A stretch of 64,000 nucleotides of DNA from a candidate division WWE3 bacterium (GCA_014729135.1 WJKK01000001.1:455599-519598); one strand, 5' to 3'; shown: positions 158-55,939, counted from the first letter of the stretch. Notes: generated by a model not told the origin, from the letters alone. Numbers and translations: made by a program.

Positions 158-391
158 ATGGGCTTTTCTTTGTCTGGTGCAATTCGCGAACGCCGTGCTG
201 CTCAAGAGCAACGTGCTCGTGAGGAAGAGTTAAAAAGAATTGCTGCTGCAGGAGGTTTTTCTAAAGATGAGGCTCAGAAAAGACTCGATGCTCTTCCCGA
301 GGAGGAGGCGCGTGGATATGTACCTACAGGAGATATTGAGAAGCAGCAGAAGAAAGATAGGCAGGAACGTTCAGATCCTTTGTATAACTAG
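158..391 (+). CDS. small charged hypothetical protein (77 aa, E/R/K/Q-rich)
   Basis: ORF with an ATG directly after the upstream stop. No recognisable domain. Confidence 0.4.
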   Translation: MGFSLSGAIRERRAAQEQRAREEELKRIAAAGGFSKDEAQKRLDALPEEEARGYVPTGDIEKQQKKDRQERSDPLYN

Positions 392-420: not shown

Positions 421-573
421 TTAGTTTTTACCTGCTTTTTGCTTGTTAGGTCTTTTTAATGCCTCTTCAATAGACGCTTTAACTTCGTCGAATTCCTCTT
501 CCAGATCTTCATAAGACTTTTTAAACTTAGGATCTTTAAGTTGTTTTTTTCTCCACTTTTTAAATGAAATCAT
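421..573 (-). CDS. candidate 50-aa small ORF (MISFKKWRKKQLKDPKFKKSYEDLEEEFDEVKASIEEALKRPNKQKAGKN), not in the ORF track
   Basis: Hand translation of the reverse complement of 421-573. ATG is preceded by GGAG. The charged helical peptide is reminiscent of the N-terminal segments of small antitoxin-like proteins. The region would otherwise be a 240-nt non-coding gap. Confidence 0.25.
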   Translation of the reverse strand: MISFKKWRKKQLKDPKFKKSYEDLEEEFDEVKASIEEALKRPNKQKAGKN

Positions 574-1433: not shown

Positions 1434-1479
1434 TTGATTGAGTTGCCGGCGCGTATGTGATTTACAGGGGAGTACGGCA

Positions 1480-1510
1480 CCGGCGAGCGTAGACGTTCTA
1501 CGCCCGCCGG
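1480..1510. other. GC-rich perfect/near-perfect hairpin (CCGGCGAGCGTAGA-cgt-TCTACGCCCGCCGG)
   Basis: 14-bp stem with one mismatch and a 3-nt loop. It sits in a local GC-rich patch (1440-1530) within an otherwise AT-rich genome. No U-tract follows. Confidence 0.45.
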
Positions 1511-1532
1511 CGATAAGTCCTAGTGCTGCCGG

Positions 1533-1864
1533 TTGGGAGGTGCTTTAGCTGCCCTTTCCCGGTTTATTCGCTCTTTTTTCTTTTCTGGGCGAGTGGGTCT
1601 TTTTTTTCGTAATTCTTTTTGCTTTTTCTTCCCTCGCTCGCTTTTTCATCTCTTCCCCTTTCTCGTTTTTTTCCAAGTCTTCTTTTTTTCCTTTGCTCGA
1701 CTATGTTTGTCGAACTCTTTACGCTGTTTTTCCTTTGCAGCATTATGTTCGGTTTCAGGGTCTTGGGGCATTTCCTCACCTCCTTTTTGTTAGGATGTCA
1801 ACTTGGGCGCATAATAACACAACCTCCCTTAAAAACGCCAAAAAATAAGCCCATAAAAATCTGA
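1533..1864. repeat. ~330-bp pyrimidine-rich (CT, + strand) low-complexity tract. The minus strand encodes K/R/E-rich peptides: a 71-aa GTG ORF at 1564-1779 and a 41-aa ATG ORF at 1646-1771 with a well-spaced GGAGG.
   Basis: Strong strand compositional skew, with runs of T and CTT/CTC. The minus strand reads AAAAAGGAGGTGAGGAAATG-CCCCAAGAC..., giving MPQDPETEHNAAKEKQRKEFDKHSRAKEKKKTWKKTRKGKR. Confidence 0.5.
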
Positions 1865-1868
1865 TAAA

Positions 1869-20774: not shown

Positions 20775-20861
20775 CATCTTTATTAGGGTATATTTACCTG
20801 TTATACTCTGCTTGTTTTTAAGATATTGAAAATCTAAGGAGATGGAAGGAGGGTGAGTGAG

Positions 20862-21662
20862 ATGGATAAGCGAGAAATTGGAGTTACGAGTATGGCGTTT
20901 TTCCCCTGGGTTTTACTACCGGGGGGACTGTTACTGGTAAATAGGTGGTCGCGAAAAGCCGGCTATGATTTTTTGCAGCCGGTTCCCTCTCGCGGGATTT
21001 TTCCATTTGTATTGCGAAGGATCCCCGCGGATCGAATTCCCCACACCCAGGGTTCGTGGCACCCGCGTCCGGGCCGTCCTCTTATGGCAGTTGCGCGGCA
21101 GTTTGGGTTGGTGGGGGACGAGTGGCCCTTGCCCGAAGATTGGATAGTCTTTGCCTCCGCGCGGCTGGTTGAGTGTCGCCTAAAACTTTTTCAGAGGAAC
21201 TTTCCGGATGTTCGTCGTGTAGGCCACAGCTGGGGAGACCCCCTTTTGGAGGTGAATCCCGACCTATTGACTTCCGCAGGGGAGCAGCCTGCTCTCGGTG
21301 ATCTTCTGGACTATCCGGGAGATCTAGTGATTGATCTCTGGCATGTTCGAAGAGAAGGTTGGCAGGGACAAGCTCCCTTGACCTCCGAACCCGTGGAGTT
21401 TTTTCAACAACTCCTATTTTCGGGTAAAGTAGTCCTTGTCCATTTTCAACCAGCGCGAGATGGTGCAGAGCTGGGAAGGTTTCTCCGGGGGGAACCAACG
21501 GTTTTGGATGAATTACTAGCTCTCCTACGTTTGTACCCGCGGATTCCTCTAGTGGTGGAGCTGGCTCCGCCCTCCACTGCGCCTGCCTCCTGGATGTTCC
21601 CCAGGTCGGCAATTCAGGGCCTGATTCAGGTCCGTCAGCGCATAGAAGAGGTCCTAACCTAG
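20862..21662 (+). CDS. hypothetical protein encoded on a GC-rich island (no recognisable domain)
   Basis: 266-269 aa ORF (GTG 20853 or ATG 20862), preceded by GGAGATGGAAGGAGGG. Local GC is ~58-62% against ~40% flanks. Pro/Arg/Ala/Gly-rich codon usage. A strong terminator follows. Confidence 0.55.
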   Translation: MDKREIGVTSMAFFPWVLLPGGLLLVNRWSRKAGYDFLQPVPSRGIFPFVLRRIPADRIPHTQGSWHPRPGRPLMAVARQFGLVGDEWPLPEDWIVFASARLVECRLKLFQRNFPDVRRVGHSWGDPLLEVNPDLLTSAGEQPALGDLLDYPGDLVIDLWHVRREGWQGQAPLTSEPVEFFQQLLFSGKVVLVHFQPARDGAELGRFLRGEPTVLDELLALLRLYPRIPLVVELAPPSTAPASWMFPRSAIQGLIQVRQRIEEVLT

Positions 21663-21669
21663 ATTAACC

Positions 21670-21718
21670 CGGATCTCGGGAGACAGCGTAACAGCTCCCG
21701 AGATCCTGCTTTTTGCTA
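21670..21718 (+). terminator. rho-independent terminator: GGATCTCGGGAG-(12-nt loop)-CTCCCGAGATCC + TGCTTTTTGC
   Basis: Perfect 12-bp inverted repeat followed by a T-run, 8 nt after the stop of the GC-rich ORF. Confidence 0.65.
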
Positions 21719-38782: not shown

Positions 38783-39109
38783 ATGTACATGCCTAAGCAA
38801 CTGTCGTTTGTGCGCCCGTTCCGTGTCCGTTCTGGTGCAATAGGTGATCAGCTTTGGGAAATCCTGTATGAACTTGGTGTTCAGGATGGTGACGCAACCT
38901 TTACTGACCCCGAGGTTGAATTCGTGAGTAACCTACACGCCAACACGGCTCCCGGTGCTGAAATAGTCCTTATTACGGTGGCGGAACTATGGGAGGAGGC
39001 CTATCTTTTTCGCCGCAAAGTGGACTACCTCTATCGTGTTGATGTTGAGGGTCGCAAGCTAGCACTTCTTAAACGTCAGCTCCTTCGTATCCTTACTCAA
39101 CGCGATTAA
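38783..39109 (+). CDS. hypothetical 108-aa protein on a locally GC-richer segment
   Basis: Strong SD (AAAGGAGGTGAG-ATG). ~50% GC against ~40% surroundings. No recognisable domain. Confidence 0.45.
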   Translation: MYMPKQLSFVRPFRVRSGAIGDQLWEILYELGVQDGDATFTDPEVEFVSNLHANTAPGAEIVLITVAELWEEAYLFRRKVDYLYRVDVEGRKLALLKRQLLRILTQRD

Positions 39110-39352
39110 CGTTTTTATGGGGAGGCATCTCTGCAGCGGATGTCTCCCTATCCTCTGGTTAGATTGTAAATCAAGGTAAACTTCAGATTTCATACATATT
39201 CGACCCGTATATAATGGCAAAATCCTCATCTAATAAAAAAGTGCCCGTTTTTGAGTCAGATTTGATCCCAAATTTGGAGTAAATATTCATTTCGAGCGAA
39301 GCGAAACTGAACGAAAAACGAGTACTCCGAAGACTTTCGGGTTTTTTCTGTG

Positions 39353-39381
39353 TTGACATTGGATACTCTATGGTGGAATAT
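39353..39381 (+). promoter_or_regulatory. candidate sigma70-type promoter for mraZ: TTGACA (39353-39358), 17 nt, GAATAT
   Basis: Consensus -35 with correct spacing to an A/T hexamer, ~70 nt upstream of the mraZ ATG. Preceded by a weak hairpin+U6 (39327-39347). Confidence 0.35.
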
Positions 39382-39452
39382 AGATACAGATTGGTGATCA
39401 ATGGTGAAAAAGGACAGTCCTTTAAGAGGACTGTCCCTCCAGAAAAACGGGT

Positions 39453-54601: not shown

Positions 54602-55234
54602 TTATTTAGCGTATTTTCTTACAACTCCTGTGACCTTACCCTGAATTTGCAAGTCTTTAGCGTCAACAAAAATAGGATCCATCTTTGAATTTGCCGGTTG
54701 CAATCTAATTTGACCCTTACCTTCATTATAGTAGCTTTTAAGTGTTGCAAATCCGTTGTCAATAAGTGCCACAACAATATCTCCATCTTTTGCTGTGTTT
54801 TGCTGCTGAATAACAACGTAATCTCCATCAAAGATTCCCTGATCAATCATAGAATCTCCCTTTACTTGCAAAACATAACATCTTCGATTTTTAGAAACCA
54901 AATCAGCTGAAACCATTACAGTTTCCAGCGAGTTTTCAATAGCCTCAATTGGTTCTCCTGCGGCAATATAACCAACCAAAGGAAGTTCTATACCCTGTAA
55001 AGAAGTGTCAATAAGCTCCGTAATGATTTCAATTCCTCTAACTGCTCCATCGTAGCGCTTAATAAAACCTTTCTTTTCTAAAGCACTTAAATGTTCATGC
55101 ACTGTTGCTAGTGAGGAAAGCCCCATGGCATCAGCAATTTCTTGTAAAGTGGGAGAAGTATTATTCTTTTGAATAAACTGGGAAACGAAATTTAGTACTT
55201 GTTTTTGCCTTTTGTAAAGAGTTACGGGACTCAT
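54602..55234 (-). CDS. lexA: LexA repressor (S24 peptidase)
   Basis: wHTH N-terminus 'LQEIADAMGLSSLATVHEHLSALEKKGFI', catalytic 'GDSM' Ser and 'ATLKS' Lys. Confidence 0.9.
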   Translation of the reverse strand: MSPVTLYKRQKQVLNFVSQFIQKNNTSPTLQEIADAMGLSSLATVHEHLSALEKKGFIKRYDGAVRGIEIITELIDTSLQGIELPLVGYIAAGEPIEAIENSLETVMVSADLVSKNRRCYVLQVKGDSMIDQGIFDGDYVVIQQQNTAKDGDIVVALIDNGFATLKSYYNEGKGQIRLQPANSKMDPIFVDAKDLQIQGKVTGVVRKYAK

Positions 55235-55333: not shown

Positions 55334-55939
55334 TCAAGAGTTTTGTTTTTTTAGGACATTTTCAAAGCTTATATTCAGATGTCGTTGTATAAAACGGATG
55401 TCCTCGGTATTGGTTGTTATTTGTCTGTGATTTGCAAAGTAGACTCTGGTTAAGTCTTTAATATCGTCCCTTATTCTTCTTTCTGTGGATTCGATCAGGG
55501 TTCTTAATGTTTTGTGATCTTGGAAGCGCTCGTCACTTGTTTTATAGTCAATCTCTTTAATTTCCTCCTTAAGATTTTTCTCCATGTTTTTCAGGTCATT
55601 TTCTACTTGTTTTAATTTATTTGCCAGCTTAGTCTGTTTTCCTTTAACTGACTTTAGGTCTGTTTTGACGCCTTTGATATCCGTTTTTAGGTCTGTTTTA
55701 ACGCCTATGATGTCCTCTTTTAAGTTTGCTTTAACGGCTTTGATATCCTCTTTCAGGTTTGTTTTAACACCTATGATATCCTCTTTTAGATCTGTTCTAA
55801 CGCTTTTGATATCCTCTTTTAACTCTTTTCTCAGAGCGTCAATCTTTGTGTTCAACTTAGTATCCAAGTCATTTATAAGGTTTGCTATTTCTTCAATTTG
55901 CATTACTTTAAATTTACCAAAACCCCCTAAACATGTCAA
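55334..55939 (-). CDS. hendecad (11-residue) repeat, K/D/E-rich coiled-coil/amphipathic-helix protein
   Basis: Six or more tandem 11-aa units 'VKTDLKEDIKG' (LKEDIKSVRTD / LKEDIIGVKTN / LKEDIKAVKAN ...). True start is probably Met13 (MQIEEIANL), directly behind TTGACA-17-TAAATT (leaderless). Confidence 0.6.
   Translation of the reverse strand: MTCLGGFGKFKVMQIEEIANLINDLDTKLNTKIDALRKELKEDIKSVRTDLKEDIIGVKTNLKEDIKAVKANLKEDIIGVKTDLKTDIKGVKTDLKSVKGKQTKLANKLKQVENDLKNMEKNLKEEIKEIDYKTSDERFQDHKTLRTLIESTERRIRDDIKDLTRVYFANHRQITTNTEDIRFIQRHLNISFENVLKKQNS
55625..55822. repeat. about six tandem 33-bp DNA repeats (e.g. GTCTGTTTTAACGCCTATGATGTCCTCTTTTAA) encoding the hendecad units
   Basis: Units phased at 55658, 55691, 55724, 55757 and 55790, with a degenerate unit at 55625. 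Confidence 0.75.

Follow-up and report, generated by a model that had tools for sequence, protein, structure and literature searches.

A candidate minus-strand small-peptide unit on a lineage-specific insertion between two glycosyltransferase genes of a candidate division WWE3 bacterium

The DNA is derived from a genome of candidate division WWE3 (Katanobacteria, CPR/Patescibacteria). The window, i.e. the whole stretch analysed, is 64 kb long, with 40% GC. Two GT2 glycosyltransferase genes are located on its plus strand, GT2a at 633–1433 (Pfam PF00535, E = 7e-31) and GT2b, annotated at 1869–2894 (341 aa). Both match Pfam GT2, in agreement with the initial annotation, which had placed the locus between two GT2 genes. 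The GT2a/GT2b junction is occupied by a spacer of 435 bp (1434–1868, assigned to no strand), of which GT2a is the left boundary. Other members of the long surrounding plus-strand cluster are a B12-radical-SAM enzyme, a sulfotransferase and more glycosyltransferases. Upstream of GT2a are found a 77-aa ORF rich in R, E and Q (158–391, plus strand) and a 50-aa ORF rich in K and E (421–573, minus strand), neither belonging to a Pfam or NCBIfam family. The latter begins with MISFKKWRKKQLKDPKFKKSYEDLEEEF, which we take to resemble the N-terminus of HigA/XRE-type antitoxins, and has a weak PHROG match of unknown function (E = 9e-4).

Relatives of the GT2b protein are encoded in WWE3 and Patescibacteria MAGs. 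In about 25 relatives (genomes and metagenomes, 51–65% GT2b identity), GT2a overlaps GT2b by about 4–17 nt, no spacer is present, and the end of GT2a provides the ribosome-binding site for GT2b. The spacer is therefore a lineage-specific insertion. The same relatives answer a check proposed in the initial annotation, namely whether a pyrimidine-rich tract is shared between the orthologous GT2 genes: none of it is found there, and by the refuting condition set in that annotation conservation of the tract is not supported. The insertion is flanked by ACCGGTGA (1416–1423, end of GT2a) and ACCGGATGA (1873–1881, start of GT2b); in relatives, CACCGGAGA stands at the single overlapping junction. The flanking pair may be a junction duplicated by the insertion event, or may be due to chance.

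A spacer at the junction occurs only in the subclade nearest to the window (65–81% mutual GT2b identity), and its contents differ each time. In locus L012, and likewise in L042, the order is GT2a, a minus-strand 34-aa basic ORF with SD and canonical terminator, a membrane-protein gene and GT2b. In locus L001, a different upstream gene is followed by a minus-strand 47-aa basic ORF with SD and canonical terminator, and then by GT2b. The SD is strong for both small ORFs. All five contigs L038–L042 (67–74% GT2b identity) break 0–190 nt upstream of GT2b, which suggests that the region equivalent to the spacer is hard to assemble or strain-variable in the subclade. The GT2a orthologue of L012 is apparently split into two overlapping frames (469–660 vs 81–542); a frameshift, pseudogenisation or faulty assembly could account for this.

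Similarity searches reveal no DNA resembling the spacer in the window, the fetched loci, phages or plasmids. A repeat and self-similarity search reveals no second copy of the spacer or of its hairpin (described below) in the window or the fetched loci. No match is obtained in a tRNA/tmRNA scan, nor with Rfam at gathering thresholds over the whole window. With permissive E-values, positions 1300–2000 give nothing credible in Rfam, the best match being C4 antisense RNA (19.7 bits vs a threshold of 45, E = 0.46). Identities as attC site, REP-like element or MITE were considered and rejected: the element is single-copy, without conserved cores and without target-site duplication. By inspection of 1434–1545 for the integron attC cores RYYYAAC and GTTRRRY, the candidate ends GAGTTGCC and GTTGGGA fit neither core and are not mutual inverse complements. 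Tandem repetition is observed elsewhere in the window, at 55653–55855, where five 33-nt repeats encoding 11-residue repeats lie inside a minus-strand ORF (55334–55939); its protein matches the apolipoprotein A1/A4/E helical-repeat family below threshold (33.7 bits vs a cutoff of 90).

An extended -10 box, TGATAAAAT, is located on the plus strand at 1862–1870, 7 nt before ATG 1878, and the annotated GT2b start, ATG 1869, falls within it. The true start of GT2b is probably ATG 1878, because the proteins of relatives start with MTFF or MMTFF and the same box lies a few nt upstream; shortly before the GT2b ATG of relatives it reads TGGTAAAAT, TGGTAGAAT or TGCTAAAAT. A -10-like TAnn[AT]T box ending 4–12 nt before the start is found in 14 of 48 window genes, vs 10% at random positions (p = 2e-4); example starts examined are 633, 1878, 2943, 21730, 23241 and 56019. 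An SD core is present in only 6 of the 48. Since start-proximal -10 boxes are enriched and SD cores rare, the sequence suggests that leaderless or very-short-leader mRNAs are widespread in this WWE3 genome. Among the few window genes with a strong SD (AAAGGAGGT) is a LexA repressor gene (54602–55234, minus strand; Peptidase_S24 and LexA DNA-binding domain).

The proximal part of the spacer is a GC island at 1440–1530, as initially annotated. Its GC content is 62.6% vs 40% for the window, and the 64 kb contain only one other strong island. It contains a GC-rich hairpin at 1478–1512, with a 16-bp stem and a 3-nt loop; the stable hairpin reported earlier at 1480–1510 is thus located again, as the strongest local fold of the window. 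Its free energy, -30.7 kcal/mol, is the lowest of any 45-nt fold on either strand (mean -5.1, sd 3.2). As minus-strand RNA the stem is perfect, including two G-U pairs; as plus-strand RNA it has two A-C mismatches in their place. For the 127-nt hairpin context, z is likewise lower as minus-strand RNA (-3.99) than as plus-strand RNA (-1.24). No U-tract follows the hairpin, the downstream sequence being CCGUACUCCCC (minus) or CGAUAAGUCC (plus), and the terminator scan does not list it; other hairpins and terminators in the window do carry U-tracts. The identity of a canonical intrinsic (Rho-independent) terminator is rejected for 1478–1512: the GC-rich stem is present, the U-tract missing. The hairpin is presumably a 3'-end structure of a minus-strand transcript, terminator-like or stabilising.

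GC content also rises, to as much as 70% in this 40% GC genome, over an island of 800 bp at 20853–21710. A canonical terminator lies there at about 21666–21710, together with several very stable hairpins and an ORF of 269 aa that has a strong SD and is without Pfam match; the island looks horizontally acquired. An ORF-poor intergenic gap at 38976–39445 contains strong hairpins at 39111–39155 (plus strand) and 39401–39445 (minus strand, with U-tract), without Rfam match.

Beyond the hairpin, much of the spacer is rich in pyrimidines on the plus strand. The initial annotation had described a CT-rich tract of 330 bp at 1533–1864. The CT maximum of the window does lie here: the most pyrimidine-rich 200-nt window of the 64 kb is found in the tract (0.785; mean 0.504, sd 0.06). 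Compared with that description, the tract proves shorter and less pure, extending over 1546–1780 (235 nt, 76% C+T; core 1560–1700, 81% C+T), and no homopyrimidine run is present, the longest pure stretch being 17 nt. The segment 1533–1864 as a whole has 68% C+T, and 1781–1864 is not CT-rich. Most likely the plus-strand tract has no function of its own and is the complement of the Lys, Arg and Glu codons (AAR, AGR, GAR) of a minus-strand ORF and of the purine-rich region 3' of it.

This ORF, ORF1, extends on the minus strand over 1646–1771 (ATG 1771). It would encode a highly basic peptide of 41 aa, MPQDPETEHNAAKEKQRKEFDKHSRAKEKKKTWKKTRKGKR (ORF1-derived peptide sequence, MPQDPETEHNAAK...), with pI 10.3 and net charge +9. 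GGAGG is located 7 nt upstream of the ATG, so that the well-spaced SD noted at first is borne out. The peptide is extremely hydrophilic (GRAVY -2.52; maximum Kyte-Doolittle value over an 11-residue window, -1.9) and has no hydrophobic segment. Single-sequence structure prediction yields one helix, residues 5–40 (pLDDT 81). The charge suggests that the peptide may bind nucleic acid or the ribosome. The kinship with nucleic-acid-binding or ribosome-associated small proteins proposed at first finds no match in Pfam, NCBIfam, PHROGs or PDB.

Competing minus-strand frames are present. A 71-aa GTG ORF (1779–1564), whose GTG abuts the GGAGG of ORF1, is confirmed in the sequence. Three features absent from the initial annotation are added here: a third frame (1676/1649–1545; 34/43 aa, a possible 34-aa ORF2 from ATG 1649) in the purine-rich 3' region; an ATGA overlap of the ORF1 stop and the ORF2 start at 1649–1646, read directly from the sequence; and an inverted repeat, 1536–1554/1766–1783, that brackets the purine-rich part. 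In the ORF1 frame, the heptamer A_AAA_AAG (1688–1682) is, speculatively, a possible -1 slippery site into the second frame. All three minus-strand frames are partly open. Since T is scarce on the minus strand, openness alone proves nothing.

Frames were compared by a codon-frame score, the log-likelihood ratio (LLR) of in-frame vs off-frame codon usage, trained on 44 window genes; p-values refer to stop-free shuffles. ORF1 scores 0.29–0.40 bits per codon, real window genes 0.38 ± 0.12. Its p-value is 0.0065, and its score is matched by 1 of 220 spurious ORFs of similar length; its third codon positions are enriched in T. The 71-aa GTG frame scores negative (p = 0.97) and looks non-coding, in line with the doubt first expressed about it. 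The third frame is like random (p = 0.27–0.6), without codon-position periodicity, so that coding is unsupported there. The best-scoring frame moves from that of ORF1 to the -1 frame around 1690–1660, and no stop interrupts the -1 frame between 1700 and 1545. The minus strand is thus supported as the meaningful one, and ORF1 as the best coding candidate among its ORFs, in line with the initial annotation.

No homologue of ORF1, or of an ORF1 + ORF2 fusion, is found in protein sets of 5.8 billion and 1.84 billion sequences. ORF1 itself is absent from both sets, and therefore no gene caller in those collections predicted it. The minus-strand ORFs have no match in sequence searches of Pfam, NCBIfam, PHROGs or PDB, and no known toxin family is recovered for ORF1 in Pfam, NCBIfam, PHROGs or an exhaustive HMMER search. 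The L001 peptide matches only itself in protein searches. Mutual similarity of the ORF1, L001 and L012 peptides is not significant once composition is controlled (best p = 0.055). Homology of the three via DKHS, HSPR and K-K-[ST]-W, seen by eye, was rejected: composition-preserving shuffles give p = 0.055–0.84, and BLASTP gives nothing.

Expression signals precede ORF1. An extended Shine-Dalgarno sequence of 11 nt, AAAGGAGGTGA, is located at 1776–1786 on the minus strand, conspicuous in a window whose genes so seldom have an SD core. A candidate extended -10 promoter, TGTTATTAT (1819–1811, minus strand), resembles the TGnTAnAAT boxes found in the window before other genes. On the plus strand, a consensus scan of the ORF region yields no promoter; a weak TTTACG-17-CATTAT is seen by eye only.

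The predicted minus-strand RNA, from the -10 box through the hairpin, was folded. Its 5' and 3' parts are predicted to pair: the SD (1783–1777) with an anti-SD-like CACCUCC (1542–1536), and the start-codon region (1770–1766) with GGGCA (1554–1550). The two 3' elements form one arm of a closing helix (1536–1554) and flank the stop codon of the second frame. Predicted pair probabilities in the helix are 0.95–0.97. The closing duplex has -30.4 kcal/mol (z = -3.9), equalled in 0 of 600 shuffles, and pairing as good with the leader is found in just 0.8% of window segments. The fold of the whole predicted transcript gives z = -3.25, vs -1.78 for the plus strand. Because the closing helix is without G-U pairs, it would form equally in plus-strand RNA. 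In L001, the small-ORF transcript has a perfect 14-bp 5'–3' closing helix, GGUUAAUUAGGUUC with GAACCUAAUUAACC (z = -4.9). In the fold of the L012 small-ORF transcript no significant closing helix is observed.

The best, if tentative, reading of the spacer is an orphan minus-strand transcription unit for a small peptide. Its RNA would fold so as to sequester the SD and would have a stabilising hairpin at the 3' end; the unit would lie on the lineage-specific insertion, and the pyrimidine tract would be its complement. The insertion would have split a GT2–GT2 pair that normally overlaps. Transcription would start from the extended -10 box at 1819–1811 and give a leader of about 33 nt with a perfect SD, followed by the 41-codon ORF (1771–1646), whose product would be very basic and form a single helix, then by some 100 nt of purine-rich sequence on the 3' side, the segment complementary to the SD and start codon (1554–1536) and, last, the 16-bp hairpin (1512–1478). 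The full-length mRNA would fold back in vivo, its 3' anti-SD hiding the SD and start codon, so that translation would be low or conditional. The hairpin would end or stabilise the transcript and block antisense read-through into GT2a. Silencing of small-ORF mRNAs by SD/anti-SD pairing near the 3' end, followed by a terminal stem-loop, is established for type I toxins (PMC8594479).

The proposed unit is supported by the overlap of the GT2 genes in relatives, by the hairpin, perfect on the minus strand only, by the lower z of the whole-transcript fold on that strand, by the gene-like ORF1, the 11-nt SD, the closing helix, the positional analogues in L012 and L001 and the known SD/anti-SD parallel. 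Against it stand the lack of homologues, the gap of 130 nt between the ORF1 stop and the hairpin, unusually long for a compact genome, the missing U-tract, the helix without G-U pairs, the lack of a helix in L012 and the dissimilarity of the small ORFs. Open frames are moreover expected by chance, because purine-rich DNA has few stop codons.

The main rival, a serious one if rather unlikely, is that the spacer is a non-functional insertion scar: foreign or scrambled DNA that landed in a variable glycan-synthesis cluster, at a junction prone to recombination, with ORFs, SD and inverted repeats that are accidents of purine-rich composition, the hairpin being at most a generic barrier between the GT2 genes. 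A scar would agree with the absence of the spacer from relatives and of any kind of homologue, with the compositionally foreign GC island, with T scarcity that leaves all minus-strand frames open, with the non-coding appearance of the second and 71-aa frames, and with the variation of the junction in the subclade (differing neighbours in L001 and L012, contig breaks 0–190 nt upstream of GT2b in L038–L042). Several features argue against it: a frame score improbable for a spurious ORF, a perfect 11-nt SD at ideal spacing, pairing of SD and start codon with the anti-SD at z = -3.9, a strand-asymmetric hairpin that is the strongest in 64 kb, and the recurrence of small basic ORFs with SD and terminator at this junction in L001 and L012.

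Improbable is a non-coding minus-strand RNA, in which a purine-rich, mostly unstructured loop of about 230 nt, a 5'–3' closing helix and a stable 3' hairpin cap would act not via a peptide; its partners, if it served for example as a sponge or antisense, could be pyrimidine-rich sequences or an RNA-binding protein. The minus-strand fold (z = -3.25), the high-probability closing helix, the strong hairpin, the region 1646–1545 without coding signal and the lack of a protein homologue are consistent with such an RNA. The coding-like frame signal of ORF1 and its perfect SD argue against it; there is also no Rfam match, no second copy or homologue for covariation, and no target or binding protein identified.

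Two-product models are invited by the 130-nt gap between the ORF1 stop and the hairpin. ORF1 would either be coupled to the 34-aa ORF2 via the ATGA at 1649–1646 or undergo a -1 frameshift at A_AAA_AAG, giving a fusion of about 76 aa with the junction peptide ...KEKKKEDLEKNEK and a stop at 1545, 33 nt before the hairpin. The register of the heptamer suits tandem Lys-tRNA slippage, the -1 frame has no stop over 1700–1545, the best-scoring frame switches to it near 1690–1660, the stop at 1545 gives a normal distance to the hairpin, and the ATGA overlap is present. Both versions are nevertheless very improbable, because the second frame is without coding signal (p = 0.27–0.6, statistically like random). 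In A-rich Lys-coding sequence, heptamers and ATGA overlaps of this kind arise by chance; no homologue of the fusion product is found, and no stimulatory structure is found in the fold downstream of the heptamer, where the sequence is unstructured polypurine.

A role at the level of the plus strand or of DNA, as an H-DNA/triplex spacer or a protein-bound polypyrimidine RNA leader of GT2b (both raised in the initial annotation), is scarcely credible: the stretch is the most pyrimidine-rich of the window and lies upstream of GT2b, but it is interrupted (longest pure run 17 nt), its best mirror repeat (11-nt arms, one mismatch, 8-nt spacer) is no better than window background, plus-strand folding is unexceptional (z = -1.24 and -1.78), and an RNA leader is made unlikely by the extended -10 box of GT2b itself, which stands 7 nt before the probable start.

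The interest of the minus-strand ORF1 unit is modest: its parts are in tidy order and, for a CPR genome that mostly lacks SDs, somewhat unusual, and nothing is conserved. If the peptide is made, a lineage-specific, highly basic micro-protein, called by no annotator in the searched collections, would be added to a CPR genome. To our knowledge, the small proteins of CPR bacteria are almost wholly uncharted. The predicted SD-sequestering fold is notable because most window genes appear SD-less or leaderless; the locus would be a compact test case for the use and gating of SD-dependent translation in such organisms. Even as a mere insertion scar, the spacer would mark where a GT2 pair, otherwise tightly coupled, is broken at a site prone to recombination.

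A wider proposal has little probability at present. It holds that the WWE3/Katanobacteria subclade carries fast-evolving, self-silenced small-peptide modules at the GT2a/GT2b junction, each with a perfect SD, a very basic hydrophilic peptide of 34–47 aa, an SD-hiding 5'–3' helix and a terminal hairpin. The mRNA would be type-I-toxin-like, and the peptide would be non-membrane and target nucleic acid or the ribosome, possibly with a -1 slippage product. If true, CPR bacteria would possess a kind of RNA-gated small-peptide element that had not been described before.

Among known systems, the proposed unit is closest in layout to type I toxin mRNAs (hok, aapA1, T1TAdb descriptors), with which it shares an ORF of less than 60 codons and a strong SD (PMC8594479). 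The 41-aa ORF, its SD and the candidate promoter would place a small ORF on its own predicted transcript. Long-distance 5'–3' sequestration of the SD by a 3' anti-SD and a terminal stem-loop are likewise common to both (PMC8594479), for ORF1 as a prediction (1783–1777 with 1542–1536; hairpin 1478–1512). The possible overlapping or coupled frames of ORF1 and ORF2 recall mok/hok. The ORF1 peptide is unlike type I toxins, which are usually membrane peptides, small and hydrophobic: it is extremely hydrophilic (GRAVY -2.5), with no hydrophobic segment and no toxin-family homology. No antisense antitoxin RNA gene is found either; read-through from GT2a would be antisense to the unit but would not amount to a dedicated gene. 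Because the peptide is non-hydrophobic and no antitoxin RNA is found, the likeness would be functional only.

In size (30–50 aa) and very high pI, ORF1 resembles bS21, bS22, Sra, bTHX, bL34 and bL36. Ribosomal proteins are conserved across relatives, whereas ORF1 is unconserved even among WWE3 relatives and has no Pfam, NCBIfam or PDB match. The heptamer A_AAA_AAG is identical to that of the dnaX-type -1 frameshift and in the correct register; it differs in having neither a downstream stem-loop nor a properly spaced upstream SD-like stimulator, and the shifted frame is without coding signal and unconserved. Finally, ORF1 is like the orphan small ORFs of variable surface-polysaccharide loci in its restriction to one lineage, its lack of homologues and its position in a glycosyltransferase cluster of varying neighbourhood. 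It is unlike typical members of that group in its unusually complete expression signals and in the predicted regulatory fold of its mRNA.
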